A stretch of DNA of 64,000 nucleotides from Candidatus Bathyarchaeia archaeon (lineage in GTDB: Archaea; Thermoproteota; Bathyarchaeia; Bathyarchaeales; Bathycorpusculaceae): NCBI GenBank assembly GCA_049516875.1, contig JBEKSS010000001.1:470549-534548 (forward strand), written 5' to 3'. The position numbers and the translations under genes were made by a program. A model generated the notes under the pieces. It ran no database searches. It saw only the letters and a list, made by a program, of their open reading frames with translations, and was not told the DNA's origin. How positions within the stretch are numbered: the stretch's first letter is position 1; every line of letters starts with the position of its first letter. Shown here piece after piece: positions 11,509 to 17,392 of this stretch.

Positions 11509-13014
11509 ATGCAAGACGAGCTTAAGATAGCGTGTGGAGTGTTCGCTGCAAAGAATCTTGAGAACCGGCCGGTGTTCTCGTACATTTACTGGGGTCTGAG
11601 AGCACAGAACCACAGGGGTCACCAGTCGCACGGTTTTCTCACGTATAAGGATGGGAAATTTCATGTTCACAGGAATCTGGATCTTGTGCCGAAGATCAAG
11701 ACGAGCGCGATTCAGGAATGGTTTGGGCGTTTGCCCGGCAGCATCGGTATCGGAAACGTTAGGTACACGACTTCGGGAAAATGCGATGAGAAGTCGTTGA
11801 TTAAGGGCACGCAGCCAGTTACTGCTACGAAGAACGGTTCAAAAGTGGCTATTTCGTTTAACGGTAATGTTGTGAACACGTTTCAGCTAAGGAAGGAGAT
11901 AGACAAGAAGTTTCATCGTTTTGCGTATGAGTGTGATTCAGACTTGATTTGTCACAAGCTTTTGATTGAGCTTGTGAAACGCAAGGATTTGGCGTCTGCG
12001 GTCAAGGCGTGCATGCAGGAGGTTGAGGGAGCCTTCTCCGTGGCGGGTATAACGGAGAAAGGTGATTTCTTCGCTTTCAAGGATCCGCACGGCATTAGGC
12101 CGTTGTGCGCTGGTCACAGTCCGGACGGGTCAACCTACGTGTTTTCTTCGGAAACCGTGAGTTTGGACATTAACGGTTTTGAAAGGGACTTTGAACTGGA
12201 GCCCGGAGAGCTTGTGACCGTTTCGAAGAATGGTTTTGAAAGGCAAAAGCTTGTGAAAGATTATCGGAAAGCCTTTTGCGCTTTTGAGTTTGCGTATTTT
12301 GCGAGGCCGGATTCGCGGTTTGACGATAAATATGTTTATGAGGTTCGGGAAGAGTTTGGCAGGAACCTTGTCAAAGAGAATCCTGACGCAGTGAAGGATG
12401 CAGATATGATTCTTTCTGTGCCCGAGACGGGTGATGACTCGGCTTTGGGCGTTCACGAGGCTTCTGGAATAAGGTGGGAGAGAGCTTCGCGGAGACACCG
12501 GTATGTGACTGAGAGGGCTTTTCTGTTGCTGAGCAAGGATCGCACTTCGACGATAGACAGGAAAATCAACATTCTAGGGCCGAAGGTTAAGGGAAAAAGG
12601 ATCATAGTCACGGAGGACAGCATCGTCAGGAGCGACACGACAAGAGTCATTGTGGAGAAAATGCGGAGAATGGGCGCTAAGAAAGTGTACGTATTCGTGA
12701 CTTTTCCACGCATAGTCGGACCGTGTCTCTATGGAATCGACATGGCAACATACGGCCAGCTGATAGGTTCACGGCACAGTACGGAGGAAATTGCAAAGAT
12801 AATCGGTGCGGACGCGGTTTGCTACCAGTCTTTAGAAGGACTTGTGAAGGCGACGGGTTTCAAGCAGGACGAGCTGTGCATGGCGTGCTTGACGGGCAAG
12901 TATCCCACGCCGCTAGCTCAGAAGATAGCTGACGTGATGAAGAAACGGTTCTCGGAAGGCTACGAAGAAACGGGAAGGCTTTACGAGATAGAAGAAGCCG
13001 CCCAAACGGCGTAG
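11509..13014 (+). CDS. purF: Amidophosphoribosyltransferase
   Basis: Short propeptide then CGVF nucleophile, HRG, VRYTTSG, CAFEFAYFARPDS, DSIVR, YGID, LCMAC. Confidence 0.95.
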   Translation: MQDELKIACGVFAAKNLENRPVFSYIYWGLRAQNHRGHQSHGFLTYKDGKFHVHRNLDLVPKIKTSAIQEWFGRLPGSIGIGNVRYTTSGKCDEKSLIKGTQPVTATKNGSKVAISFNGNVVNTFQLRKEIDKKFHRFAYECDSDLICHKLLIELVKRKDLASAVKACMQEVEGAFSVAGITEKGDFFAFKDPHGIRPLCAGHSPDGSTYVFSSETVSLDINGFERDFELEPGELVTVSKNGFERQKLVKDYRKAFCAFEFAYFARPDSRFDDKYVYEVREEFGRNLVKENPDAVKDADMILSVPETGDDSALGVHEASGIRWERASRRHRYVTERAFLLLSKDRTSTIDRKINILGPKVKGKRIIVTEDSIVRSDTTRVIVEKMRRMGAKKVYVFVTFPRIVGPCLYGIDMATYGQLIGSRHSTEEIAKIIGADAVCYQSLEGLVKATGFKQDELCMACLTGKYPTPLAQKIADVMKKRFSEGYEETGRLYEIEEAAQTA

Positions 13015-13047
13015 CGGCAAACCAAATTAGGCGTTCCCAGTTATTCT

Positions 13048-14484
13048 GTGATCCAAGAGGGCTTGCTTGTGGAGAAGGTGGGCGTACTCGTTGTTTCCTA
13101 CGGTTCAAGAGAAGCGGCGATGGTTGACGCTTTTGCCAGAAGCAGGAATTACAGGGTTGAGCTTTACGTTGCGGACAAGCAGCGGAACCCTTTCAACGTT
13201 CAGAGAGCTGCCAAGCACGTTGTCATACCGGACTTGAACATCCGTGAAATCTGCAAGTTCGCTGAGGCCAACAAGGACAGCATCGACTTTGGCATAATCG
13301 GTCCGGAGAAGCCTATCATTGAGGGCGTGCGCGATCTTGTGGAGAAGCAGACGGGCATACCCTTGATTTGTCCGACGAAGGAGTACGCGATAGAGGAAAG
13401 CAAGGTGCGGCAGAGGCTTTTGTTTCAGGAAATCATGCCGGAAGTGAACCCGCGCTTTAAGGTTTTTGATCCGAAGGATTACAAAAATACGGCGGAAGTG
13501 AAGCAGGCCGTTGAAAGTTGGGTTGACGAGCTGCAAGACCAGGCGGTCGTGAAGCCTGACAAGCCTACTGCGGGAAAAGGAGTGGGCGTCTGGGGAGATC
13601 ACTTCACCACGCGGGAAGAATTGTTTGAACACTTCCTCTCCAACTATCAGCACGGCACCGTTATTATTGAAGAAAAGGTTGAGGGGGAAGAATCGAGTTT
13701 TCAGGCTTTCTGCGACGGCAAACGGCTCGTGCCACTTCCCGACACGAGAGACCACAAACGCGCGTTCGACGACGATAGAGGACCGAATACGGGTGGAATG
13801 GGCAGCTACAAGGATAAGGGCGACGTGTTGCCGTTCCTGTCCAAGGCGGATCGGCAGAGAGAATTGGAGGTTGTGGAGAAGATTTTTGGAAGGTGGAAGT
13901 CGAGGGCAAAGGACGGTTCAGGCTTGAGGGGTGTGCCGTTGTACGTGGCTTTCATGCACACGGGCGAGGGGTTGAAGATTCTTGAAAACAACAGCCGTCC
14001 GGGAGACCCCGAAATAATGAATGTTCTGCCAGTCTTGAAGGAGGATTTTGTTGATGTGTGTTTTAGGATTTTGGAGGGGAATTTGACAGGCATCGAGTTG
14101 GAGAAGTCGGCGACTGTTGCAACGTATAAGGTTCCGCCCAGCTACGGTGGATACGCCGAGACTTTCCCCGATCTGGTGAGAAAAGGCGAAGTTGGCATGT
14201 CTGTTGACTTGTCAGGAGCATACGGGCTGAGCAAGAAGTACGGTGACAATATTCGTGTTTATCCGGGGTCGATGGAGCAGCGCGACGGCGAAACTTATGC
14301 TCTTAAGTCGCGAGCCGTGTGTGTTGTGGGTGTCGGTGACGATTTGGAGACGGCGAGAAAGGTTTCTCTCGAAGGCCTAAACGCCGTCAAGGGCGGAGCA
14401 CTGTGGAGCAGAAGTGACATTGCTTCCAAGAGGCATATTGAAAGAAGCGTGAAACATATGGAGGAGTTGAGGCGCAAACGGTGA
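13048..14484 (+). CDS. purD: Phosphoribosylamine--glycine ligase
   Basis: IIGPE, AGKGV, EGEE, DHKRAFD.DRGPNTGGMG, RPGDPE. Confidence 0.95.
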   Translation: MIQEGLLVEKVGVLVVSYGSREAAMVDAFARSRNYRVELYVADKQRNPFNVQRAAKHVVIPDLNIREICKFAEANKDSIDFGIIGPEKPIIEGVRDLVEKQTGIPLICPTKEYAIEESKVRQRLLFQEIMPEVNPRFKVFDPKDYKNTAEVKQAVESWVDELQDQAVVKPDKPTAGKGVGVWGDHFTTREELFEHFLSNYQHGTVIIEEKVEGEESSFQAFCDGKRLVPLPDTRDHKRAFDDDRGPNTGGMGSYKDKGDVLPFLSKADRQRELEVVEKIFGRWKSRAKDGSGLRGVPLYVAFMHTGEGLKILENNSRPGDPEIMNVLPVLKEDFVDVCFRILEGNLTGIELEKSATVATYKVPPSYGGYAETFPDLVRKGEVGMSVDLSGAYGLSKKYGDNIRVYPGSMEQRDGETYALKSRAVCVVGVGDDLETARKVSLEGLNAVKGGALWSRSDIASKRHIERSVKHMEELRRKR

Positions 14485-15563: not shown

Positions 15564-16478
15564 ATGGTTCGGAAGGATTTGGTTGAGGACACTTATGCTG
15601 AAGCGTTTGACGGCTTGTACGTGCGAGTCATTGTCACTGCGGATGATGAGGAAACGTTGAAGAAGGCGGCGGAAGACGCTACTGCTTCGCCGTCGGGAGT
15701 AATAGGTAGGCTTGAGGGTGGAATTGAAAAATGGCTGAACGCTGAGGAAACTCCGGACAGGCGGAAAGGAGCTGTTCTGCAGCTTTGGAAGGGGTTGGAC
15801 AAGGGGAAATCTTTGGAGAGTGTGGTTGAGCGGTTTGAGAGGGAGCTTTCTTATCGGGTTCGGCAGGACATTCTTGTGAAGCCTTTCACCGCGGTTTTTG
15901 ATGCTTTGTCTGTTAAGGCTGAGGGAAGAATGGACATGATGGAAAAGGTTGGGCACTGTGGCGATGGGTATGAGTGGGAGAAGCAGCTCTATGGTCGAAG
16001 TATGATTGTTGTTCCGATTATGGTGCCTGATTTTTTTATTGAGCGGCATGTCGGTTATGCTCGGGGGGTTTCTGGTGGCAATTTTTGGATGATGTGCAGG
16101 ACGAAGAAGGCGGTGAGGGAGGCTGGCAAGGCGGCGTTGGAAGCCATAGGCAAGGTTGAAGGAGTGATAACGCCTTTTGACGTTTGTTCGGCTGGGTCGA
16201 AGACTGAGACCAAATTTCCGTTGATAGGGCCGACGACGAATCATCCTTATTGTCCGTCGCTGAAGGAGAAGTTGGGCAGAGAGTCGTTGGTTCCTGAAGG
16301 AGTCAACTACATTCCTGAAATAGTGATCAGCGGCGTTTCGATGCGTGCGGTGAAAGAGGCGATGAAGGCTGGGATTGAAGCAAGTTTGACTGTTGACGGC
16401 GTTGTGAAGGTCTCTGCAGGAAACTACGGAGGAAAATTGGGTGAGTACAAGATTTACTTGCGTGAGCTGTTCCGATGA
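15564..16478 (+). CDS. Formylmethanofuran:H4MPT formyltransferase paralog (Ftr-like, EhaS-type)
   Basis: [36 protein letters not shown]; divergent [10 protein letters not shown] and GHCGDG segments differ from canonical Ftr. Confidence 0.88.
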
Positions 16479-17392
16479 GCAGATTTGACGTTGTGGGGTT
16501 CGGCGCGCTTAACGTGGACAAGCTTTTCAAGGTGAACAGGATAGCCGCGAAGGAAGAGGAGAGCTTCATAACAGATTTTATTGAGACCTGCGGTGGGTCA
16601 GCGGCAAACACTGTTGTAGGCTTGGCAAGACTTGGCTGCAAAGTGGGTTTTATTGGAAAAGTTGCCAGTGACAGAGAAGGAAAGATGCTGCTTGAAGAGT
16701 TCCGCAGAGAAGGCGTCGACATAAAAGGCGTAGCGGTTGCAAAGAAGGGCAGAAGCGGCACAGTCATGGGATTCGTGGACGAAAAAGGTGAACGGGCACT
16801 GTACATTGATCCGGGCGTAAACGATCAAGTAGGGTTTAATGAGAATATCATGAGATATGCGTCTCAAACGACGTTTCTTCACTTGACTTCTTTTGTGGGG
16901 GAAGAGTCCTTTCAGGCGCAAAAGAGGATTCTTGAGACGATTCCTGAAGATGCCATGGTGAGCTTTGATCCTGGTGCGTTGCACGCGAGGAAAGGGTTGG
17001 CTGCATTGGAATCGATTGTTGGGAGGACTTTTGTTTTGATGCCGAACGCGGGTGAACTTGAACTATTGACAGGCATGGCCGATTATAGAAAGGGCGCTGA
17101 AGCCTTGCTTAGGAAGGGTGTGAAGGTTGTTGCAGTCAAGTTGGGCAGCAGAGGGTGCTATGTGACTGATGGGAGACAGAGCCACAACGTGGAAGCGTTC
17201 AAGGTGAACGTGGTGGATACGACTGGTGCTGGGGACGCTTTTTGTGCGGGGTTCCTCTACGGCTTGATTGAACATGAGAGTCTTGAGGAGTGTGGAAGGA
17301 TAGGGAATTTCGTGGCATCTAGATGCACAACAAGAATGGGAGCAAGAGTAGGACTGCCAACACTCAAGGATTTGACAAAGCTACACAGATAG
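16475..17392 (+). CDS. PfkB/ribokinase-family kinase, EhaT-like
   Basis: [19 protein letters not shown] overlap with the ftr-like gene. Confidence 0.92.

Follow-up and report, generated by a model that had tools for sequence, protein, structure and literature searches.

We analysed a 64,000-nucleotide stretch of a genome labelled Candidatus Bathyarchaeia archaeon (assembly GCA_049516875.1, contig JBEKSS010000001.1, forward-strand positions 470,549 to 534,548), referred to below as the window and numbered from its first letter. The labels of nearly identical proteins indicate Bathyarchaeia. The window carries a purine biosynthesis operon that ends in genes for a HAD-superfamily hydrolase, a paralog of the formyltransferase Ftr and a PfkB-family kinase. 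The paralog is called Ftr2, a name taken from Chadwick 2022. We propose these three genes as a candidate module for the third step of purine synthesis, the formylation of glycinamide ribonucleotide (GAR) to formylglycinamide ribonucleotide (FGAR).

Gene content of the purine operon

The genes purF, purD, HAD, ftr2 and pfkB form one close-packed operon on the plus strand at 11509-17392. The first of them, purF (11509..13014), encodes the amidophosphoribosyltransferase of step 1 (TIGR01134, 324.1 bits over the full length; GATase_6/7 domains) and is also the first operon gene in the same-order loci of relatives. It is followed after a gap of 33 nt by purD (13048..14484), which encodes a divergent subtype of the GAR synthetase of step 2, with GARS_N, GARS_A and GARS_C domains and a TIGR00877 score of 258.5 bits, under the cut-off of 288. 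The HAD-superfamily hydrolase (14481..15563; 360 residues) belongs to an AF1437/EhaR-like family, matches the generic HAD models of Pfam and NCBIfam weakly, and is a presumed phosphatase. Ftr2 (15564..16478; 304 residues), with its FTR and FTR_C domains, is the candidate GAR formyltransferase, and the PfkB-family, ribokinase-like protein encoded by the last gene (16475..17392; 305 residues; PF00294, 190 bits) is the presumed kinase of the module. The stop codon of purD overlaps the HAD start in GTGA (14481-14484), the HAD stop codon TGA (15561-15563) abuts the Ftr2 ATG at 15564 (TGA-ATG, 15561-15566), and the Ftr2 stop overlaps the PfkB start in ATGA (16475-16478).

Genes for steps 4 and 5 lie on the minus strand of the same window, at 30197-34782. 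They comprise purQ, the glutaminase subunit of step 4 (30197..31012; NF002252, 313.7 bits), and purL, also of step 4 (31016..33397; TIGR01736, 681.3 bits), both over their cut-offs, the step 4 small subunit purS (33394..33645; PF02700, 73.7 bits) and purM of step 5 (33700..34782; TIGR00878, 253.5 bits, over the cut-off). A first-pass annotation of this DNA had described the five-gene operon with its overlapping and abutting junctions, the presence of purQ, purL, purS and purM, and the absence of nearby genes for hydrogenases or for other enzymes of tetrahydromethanopterin (H4MPT) metabolism. The junctions can be read directly in the sequence, the purine genes are borne out by profile matches, and the annotated open reading frames (ORFs) of the window include no gene for a hydrogenase or for other H4MPT enzymes.

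That annotation had further pointed out that step 3, catalysed by PurN or PurT, is missing, which holds in the window and across the whole genome (97.46% complete, 20 contigs). Neither the PurN profile (TIGR00639) nor the PurT profile (TIGR01142) found a match in the assembly, control genomes respond to both, and the operon proteins match neither the Formyl_trans_N family (PurN) nor ATP-grasp proteins with PurT_C (PurT). No AICARFT domain was found in the genome, which does carry a PurP-like gene (DUF1297; contig C10, 36538-37302). With a PurP-like gene present, the second formylation of the pathway is covered, so that step 3 is the one gap; a role of the module in formylating aminoimidazole carboxamide ribonucleotide was rejected for the same reason.

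Ftr2 is a separate clade of the Ftr family

Both Ftr domains span the full length of Ftr2 (PF01913, 152 bits; PF02741, 193.6 bits). The protein scores 249.9 bits against the curated equivalog model TIGR03119, under its cut-off of 292.6, and 353.8 bits against the looser subfamily model NF002554, over its cut-off of 297. It is one of three Ftr homologs in its genome. A separate canonical ftr, for which the first-pass annotation had proposed a search, is present on contig C1 (105262-106263; 8263-9264 of the extracted locus L004), where it adjoins a creatininase-family gene. Its product scores 313 bits to M. kandleri Ftr, whereas the window copy reaches 178-196 bits to the solved Ftr structures. 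The third copy, FtrC (contig C6, 78580-79485; 8581-9486 of locus L005), scores 265 bits. FtrC represents yet another clade that few relatives carry, and its gene is flanked by those for glutamine synthetase and a DUF373 protein.

A tree built from 60 full-length representatives places the window protein within a clade of 16 rows, which has a Shimodaira-Hasegawa-like approximate likelihood ratio support of 99 and stands apart from 44 rows that contain both other paralogs. When named sequences were added, a 55-row Ftr2 clade (Shimodaira-Hasegawa-like support 87) separated from a 20-row Ftr1 clade (99). Members of the Ftr2 clade come from Bathyarchaeia, Hydrothermarchaeota, Methanophagales (group 1 of the anaerobic methanotrophic archaea, ANME-1), Alkanophaga, Syntrophoarchaeum, Methanocellales-like metagenome-assembled genomes (MAGs), Altiarchaeota, Promethearchaeota/Hodarchaeota and MAGs labelled Aenigmatarchaeota. 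Identity to the window protein is mostly 51-59% within the clade and 40-45% for the Aenigmatarchaeota-labelled members, compared with 36-42% for the Ftr paralogs in the genomes of relatives. Scores to an Ftr2 profile are bimodal in two phylum-level samples: in Thermoproteota, full-length members score 426-469 bits, two contig-end fragments 346-356 bits and other Ftr proteins at most 279 bits, and in the second phylum the corresponding values are 392-449 and at most 288 bits. The window protein thus falls outside canonical Ftr, with which the first-pass annotation had considered that it might group.

Many core residues are common to Ftr2 and Ftr. Among them is E252, which lies in an EIVI motif that aligns with the same motif in solved Ftr and is kept in both clades; a passage in PMC6926001 describes the aligned Glu as stabilising the oxyanion in Ftr and FhcD. 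Residues specific to the Ftr2 clade include C132, A210, G222 and P223.

The relationship to FhcD raises the question of formate supply. Ftr2 could help to release formate from formyl-H4MPT or formyl-methanofuran, in the manner of FhcD, for use by PurP and by a hypothetical GAR-formate ligase. The PurP-like protein of this genome requires formate, and FhcD is an Ftr homolog that, according to a passage in PMC6926001, acts in formate release. The operon holds no FhcA-like amidohydrolase, however, and archaea of the PurT type that use H4MPT also need formate yet are without Ftr2. Long Ftr proteins among the representatives carry amidohydrolase or GXGXG domains as fusions of the Fhc/Fwd type, and these fused forms are 35-39% identical to the window protein, which is the range of Ftr1-type paralogs. 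No fused Ftr2 was found among proteins of 533-2000 residues, where just two matches (32-34% identity) appeared, both Ftr1-like. We consider formate supply a very improbable function of Ftr2.

The module occupies the position after purD

Linkage of the module to purine genes, which might have been peculiar to this contig, recurs in relatives. In 17 of 20 loci from same-order relatives purD, HAD, ftr2 and pfkB occur together, and purQ/purL are present as well in 18 of the 20. A wider scan of a public genome collection used a clade motif from a 6-row alignment headed by a sequence from outside Bathyarchaeia. Of at least 599 matching stretches, the best 80 were read, as 34 Bathyarchaeia-labelled loci and 46 others. 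Among the Bathyarchaeia-labelled loci, 26 of 34 carry the full purD-HAD-ftr2-pfkB set, and one or more pur genes are present in 32 of 34. The orders purF-purD-HAD-ftr2-pfkB-purE-purM and purD-HAD-ftr2-...-pfkB occur in two further Bathyarchaeia families. In one Bathyarchaeon (locus L111) ftr2 and pfkB are separated by an inserted nucleotidyltransferase gene.

Thermoproteota that have a PurT-like gene place it directly after purD, as read from match coordinates in 34 pairs; in Bathyarchaeon G269 the order purF-purD-purT was confirmed with Pfam. The Bathyarchaeia genomes G106 and G075 have a PurN-like match directly downstream of purD, and the G106 ORF proved to be a Formyl_trans_N gene. Since a purT- or purN-like gene follows purD elsewhere, the HAD-ftr2-pfkB block occupies the GAR formyltransferase slot. 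The G106 gene (contig C1, 436020-436412; 5799-6635 of locus L108) encodes 278 residues with a PF00551 score of 62.5 bits, and its type occurs in one Bathyarchaeia family; the G075 match lies at 8153-8563 of contig C24. This type reaches only 72-75 bits to PurN and may be a divergent PurN-type GAR formyltransferase.

The PurD encoded beside the module was compared across the same lineages. Ftr2-type Bathyarchaeia have a low-scoring PurD (228-270 bits, cut-off 288), and so do the tested ANME-1, Hydrothermarchaeum, Alkanophaga, Altiarchaeota and Met33H genomes, as against mostly 289-536 bits in Thermoproteota of the PurN/PurT type. This difference would fit a route in which free glycine is formylated by Ftr2 and then joined, as N-formylglycine, to phosphoribosylamine by the divergent PurD, so that FGAR is formed directly. 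Such a route appears improbable, because the Asgard, Aenigmatarchaeota-labelled and Pyrohabitans genomes with Ftr2 have PurD scores of 339-458 bits, G075 and G106 pair a PurN-like gene with a low-scoring PurD, the window PurD retains the GDPE motif, with the conserved Asp within SRPGDPEIM, and HAD and PfkB would be left without a role. As the low-scoring subtype is absent from some Ftr2 lineages and present beside a PurN-like gene, we read it as a sign of lineage history and not of a changed reaction.

Distribution of Ftr2 relative to PurN and PurT

Two genome samples were used to profile the module against PurN and PurT. The first comprised 251 Thermoproteota genomes of at least 80% completeness (PurN-like matches at E <= 1e-10, PurT-like at E <= 1e-40), of which 170 have PurD. 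Ftr2 is present in 31 of these genomes, all Bathyarchaeia (one as a contig-end fragment), and 30 of the 31 have PurD. None of the 31 has a PurN- or PurT-like match, compared with 138 of the 140 genomes that have PurD but not Ftr2. Genomes with Ftr1 only have such a match in 28 of 33 cases (13 PurN-like, 15 PurT-like), and the remaining five all have no PurD. The exchange is visible within one Bathyarchaeia family, where one genus has a PurT-like gene and no Ftr2 and another has Ftr2 and no PurT.

The second sample consisted of 201 genomes of at least 85% completeness from the phylum of an ANME-1 genome (PurN at E <= 1e-25, PurT at E <= 1e-50). Ftr2 occurs together with PurN/PurT in four of these, Ftr2 alone in 79, PurN/PurT alone in 111 and neither in seven. 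Restricting the comparison to Ftr-bearing genomes leaves PurN/PurT in 79 of 84 genomes with Ftr1 only versus 4 of 83 with Ftr2. Among 46 named Ftr2 genomes outside Bathyarchaeia, PurN scored over the cut-off in three, a weak PurN-like match was found in one and a 182-bit PurT/PurK-like match in another; PurD was present in nine of the ten tested. The anti-correlation that the first-pass annotation had anticipated is therefore seen as near mutual exclusion in both phylum samples.

Two features of PurT itself were noted in passing. In ten Thermoproteota genomes, including G269, PurT was matched in two stretches within one ORF of 460-509 residues, which suggests an insertion. In genome G060 the PurD match lies in an open frame of 971 residues beside PurT, suggesting a PurD-PurT fusion.

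HAD and PfkB travel with Ftr2

Full-length HAD orthologs (100-142 bits, 30-33% identity) were found in four of five Ftr2 genomes from other phyla, namely those of ANME-1, Hydrothermarchaeum, Alkanophaga and Promethearchaeota, the last with two copies, as opposed to none of five Thermoproteota of the PurT/PurN type without Ftr2, two of which are Bathyarchaeia. PfkB orthologs reach 205-326 bits in the same four genomes versus at most 151 bits in the set without Ftr2. The order HAD-pfkB-ftr2 is found, with the genes adjacent, in three Methanocellales-like MAGs, and in several ANME-1-like loci 2-7 kb separate HAD from ftr2. The Promethearchaeota (Asgard) genome G305 carries purC-purS-purQ-purL-purF-HAD-pfkB-purE on one contig and purF-HAD-pfkB on a second, an independent link of HAD and PfkB to purine genes in another phylum.

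The best solved relative of the HAD protein is AF1437 (1Y8A), with 114.7 bits and TM-scores of 0.80/0.91 to a model with a mean predicted local distance difference test value of 92.8. Beyond 1Y8A the model matches only distant phosphoserine phosphatases and other HADs, and the structure comparison gave no clue to the substrate. Motif I reads D8-x-E10-G-P, with the Ser/Thr of motif II, K212 of motif III and GDSITD of motif IV invariant in 7 to 11 orthologs, and D-x-E-G-P, RYDD, SxSYE, GDSITD and FNGN are kept across phyla. By motifs I-IV and its predicted fold the window protein is a member of the HAD superfamily, presumably a phosphatase. Clusters similar to this AF1437/EhaR-type HAD, as judged by feature-space neighbours, are reported mainly from Thermodesulfobacteriota. 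The kinase has GG at position 40 and DTTGAGD at 248; its best NCBIfam model is ribokinase (173.4 bits, under the cut-off of 299.65), and the solved structures closest to it, at about 100 bits, are also of ribokinases.

Relation to EhaR, EhaS and EhaT and to published gaps in purine synthesis

The first-pass annotation had stated that the same three families end the Methanothermobacter eha operon as ehaR, ehaS and ehaT. For two of the three, published annotations agree: passages in Kaster 2011 give EhaS as annotated Ftr and EhaT as annotated ribokinase, both deemed hydrogenase subunits through co-transcription. The third is so far a lead and not an alignment, in that the nearest feature-space neighbours of the window HAD include the cluster 'Energy-converting hydrogenase A subunit R EhaR' (score 0.98, 221/256 features).

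The statement that several H4MPT-using archaea have no identifiable PurN or PurT agrees with two sources. Passages in Chadwick 2022 report both PurN and PurT as missing from ANME-1, Archaeoglobales and Methanobacteriales, and passages in Brown 2011 name the same lineages as being without a GAR formyltransferase; Methanothermobacter thermautotrophicus is one organism that has neither PurN nor PurT according to Brown 2011. Taken together, these passages describe Archaeoglobi, Methanobacteriales, Methanopyrus and ANME-1 as making purines with no recognisable GAR formyltransferase. Elsewhere in Chadwick 2022 a divergent Ftr2 is described as common to ANME-1, ANME-2a/2b, Archaeoglobales, M. kandleri and M. 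marburgensis, the ANME-1 Ftr2 clustering with the second Ftr of M. marburgensis; in these passages the missing formyltransferases and Ftr2 are kept as separate facts. The lineages reported without a GAR formyltransferase (Archaeoglobi, Methanobacteriales, M. kandleri and ANME-1) are, in the same passages, also reported with a second Ftr, and ANME-2a/2b are given a second Ftr together with PurN. Because ANME-1 Ftr2 belongs to the clade of the window protein, the clustering stated in that part of Chadwick 2022 implies that the second Methanothermobacter Ftr should belong there too. Named Methanobacteriales, Archaeoglobus and Methanopyrus were not present among the best 80 of the at least 599 locus-scan matches. 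A full-text search, with subscription journals mostly outside its reach, found no paper that connects GAR formylation with an Ftr paralog, with EhaRST or with AF1437.

A candidate route for GAR formylation

Our favoured explanation is that the HAD-Ftr2-PfkB module converts GAR to FGAR, taking the formyl group from formyl-methanofuran or formyl-H4MPT, and that it serves methanofuran- and H4MPT-using archaea without PurN and PurT. Judged from comparative sequence evidence, we assign this reading a probability of roughly 0.7. That an Ftr paralog may formylate GAR was the central proposal of the first-pass annotation, and every comparative test that was run supports it and none refuted it. A role in the biosynthesis of H4MPT or methanofuran was rejected, given that H4MPT users with Ftr1 only are without Ftr2 and the five tested are without HAD.

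Several observations weigh against GAR formylation. Outside Bathyarchaeia, no pur gene occurs in any of the 46 loci within about 10 kb of ftr2, and in ANME-1-like loci ftr2 lies beside genes for fructose-bisphosphatase (FBPase), phosphofructokinase (PFK), an aldolase-like protein and an isocitrate/isopropylmalate dehydrogenase (one Pfam scan). Ftr2 and PurN coexist in six genomes, in two of which (G291 and G293) the full trio is adjacent, and one relative with Ftr2 (G014) has a full-length PurT/PurK-like gene of 171 bits. Three genomes with canonical PurD (433-547 bits) are without Ftr2, PurN and PurT at the thresholds used, from which it follows that a further route for step 3 or divergent homologs must exist. 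The Ftr2 genomes represent few clades with few independent gains and losses, so the 2x2 tables overstate the statistics and, relatives not being independent, show a pattern and not a probability. An Altiarchaeota genome (G299) has Ftr2, and orthologs of HAD and PfkB were not found in it. Motif I of the HAD protein has Glu where a second Asp is usual, a D-x-E form also found in enolase-phosphatase E1, which is a working HAD. Finally, formyl-H4MPT is a poor donor of formyl groups according to a view cited in a passage of Brown 2011.

Some of these points would be explained if HAD and PfkB handled ribose or another sugar phosphate, for example for phosphoribosyl pyrophosphate, with Ftr2 as an Ftr isoenzyme, and if the pur linkage and the anti-correlation with PurN/PurT were by-products of lineage and cofactor use. 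The FBPase, PFK and aldolase-like neighbours of ANME-1-like ftr2 and HAD, the 46 loci without a nearby pur gene, the ribokinase models that best match PfkB and the coexistence of the trio with PurN in G291 and G293 all point this way. The complementarity nevertheless persists among Ftr-bearing genomes (28/33 and 79/84 with Ftr1 only versus 0/31 and 4/83 with Ftr2), HAD was not found in any of the five PurT/PurN-type genomes, the module sits in the purT/purN slot after purD, and HAD and PfkB lie within an Asgard pur operon. Moreover, a plain isoenzyme would not give a separate clade with 51-59% identity across phyla. A sugar-phosphate or pentose module is accordingly an unlikely alternative, though the strongest of those considered here, and the gluconeogenic neighbours may be one lineage's gene order. 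Ten ANME-1-like loci show one of two settings. In one, ftr2 belongs to a conserved block with genes for HAD, a TPR protein, FBPase_3 (FBP aldolase/phosphatase), PFK, a class II aldolase-like protein, a class I-type FBPase and the dehydrogenase; in the other, ftr2 lies upstream of the ribosomal protein genes L18e-L13-S9. One of the ten loci (L092) is labelled Desulfobacteria and has the ANME-1-like gene order, which may reflect a binning error or transfer between syntrophic partners.

If the module formylates GAR, Ftr2 would move the formyl group of formyl-methanofuran or N5-formyl-H4MPT to the primary amine of the glycinamide moiety, which is chemically akin to the aminomethyl group of methanofuran. 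As companions of Ftr2 in several phyla, HAD and PfkB most likely handle the same intermediates. A possible but more doubtful elaboration places step 3 at the level of the riboside: HAD would take the 5'-phosphate off GAR to leave glycinamide riboside, Ftr2 would formylate the riboside, and PfkB would rephosphorylate the product with ATP to give FGAR. The transfer of a formyl group from a formamide to an amine is near isoenergetic, and the ATP-driven rephosphorylation would render this amide-to-amide transfer irreversible. Riboflavin synthesis offers a precedent for a pathway in which one intermediate is dephosphorylated and a later one rephosphorylated. We suggest only tentatively that this is an ancient third route, using neither folate nor free formate, in which one ATP drives transfer from a low-energy carrier. 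Such a route would extend over Bathyarchaeia, ANME-1, Hydrothermarchaeota and Asgard archaea, and probably over Archaeoglobi and Methanobacteriales. The observations are equally compatible with a direct reaction on GAR in which HAD and PfkB have accessory roles.

A documented gap thereby gains a candidate with a diagnostic sequence signature, and both gap and candidate are extended to Bathyarchaeia, Hydrothermarchaeota and Asgard archaea. If GAR formylation is correct, Ftr2 would join PurN and PurT as a third class of GAR formyltransferase, homologous to neither, and a question that has been in print since 2011 would be answered. Purine synthesis would be linked to the methanofuran/H4MPT pool of C1 units, and metabolic models of methanogens, methanotrophic archaea and Asgard archaea would change. 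Thousands of "Ftr" annotations would need correction, at least 599 stretches matching the clade motif in one scan, and EhaR, EhaS and EhaT, the supposed hydrogenase subunits, would be reassigned. The riboside route, if real, would in addition tie purine synthesis directly to CO2 reduction, with formyl groups drawn from the Wood-Ljungdahl or the methanogenic pathway, and would explain the co-transcription of these three genes with the anaplerotic hydrogenase Eha in Methanothermobacter.

Other features of the window

Approximately 12.8 kb of accessory genes (17393..30196) separate the operon from purQ and thereby split a purine supercluster that is contiguous in most relatives, where purQ lies within about 1 kb or less of pfkB. 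The stretch holds HEPN/nucleotidyltransferase, MazE/PIN, ArsR, CMD, flavodoxin and methylase-fragment genes and a GH99-like ORF of 871 residues. Among these, two toxin-antitoxin-like pairs come directly past the operon, HEPN with an MNT-type nucleotidyltransferase on the minus strand (17381-18339) and MazE with a PIN protein on the plus strand (19187-19865). Three large ORFs of the window have no NCBIfam match: 23084-25699 on the minus strand (871 residues), which has GH99-like and WbsX-like Pfam matches, and 35970-38330 (786 residues) and 44139-47447 (1102 residues), both on the plus strand.

Comparison with known systems

Ftr2 resembles the solved Ftr proteins (1FTR/2FHJ, 1M5H, 1M5S) in size, in having both Pfam domains at full length and in the oxyanion-stabilising Glu. 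It differs from them in its lower bit scores to the solved proteins, its separate clade, its score under the TIGR03119 cut-off, signature changes such as F-to-C at 132 and A-to-P at 223, the location of its gene in a purine operon, and a distribution almost confined to genomes without PurN and PurT. With FhcD of the bacterial formyltransferase/hydrolase complex (6S6Y), an Ftr-family protein according to passages in PMC6926001, Ftr2 would share recruitment to a different physiological task. FhcD scores 108 bits to the window protein and works in a four-subunit complex with bound methylofuran, partners of a kind not present in the window operon.

For the HAD protein, AF1437 of Archaeoglobus fulgidus is the sole close solved relative, and its entry (1Y8A) reports no function. 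The order HAD-Ftr-kinase would match that of EhaR, EhaS and EhaT, encoded last in the eha operon of Methanothermobacter, whereas the window genes lie in a purine operon with no hydrogenase gene among the annotated ORFs. The likeness to PurN and PurT is one of position and distribution: the HAD-Ftr2-PfkB block takes the same slot after purD and has the complementary distribution expected of a non-homologous replacement. Ftr2 has no relation to either enzyme in sequence or fold, so that the analogy is functional only; its donor would be formyl-methanofuran or formyl-H4MPT instead of 10-formyl-folate or formate plus ATP, and, unlike PurN and PurT, it is accompanied by a presumed phosphatase and a presumed kinase.

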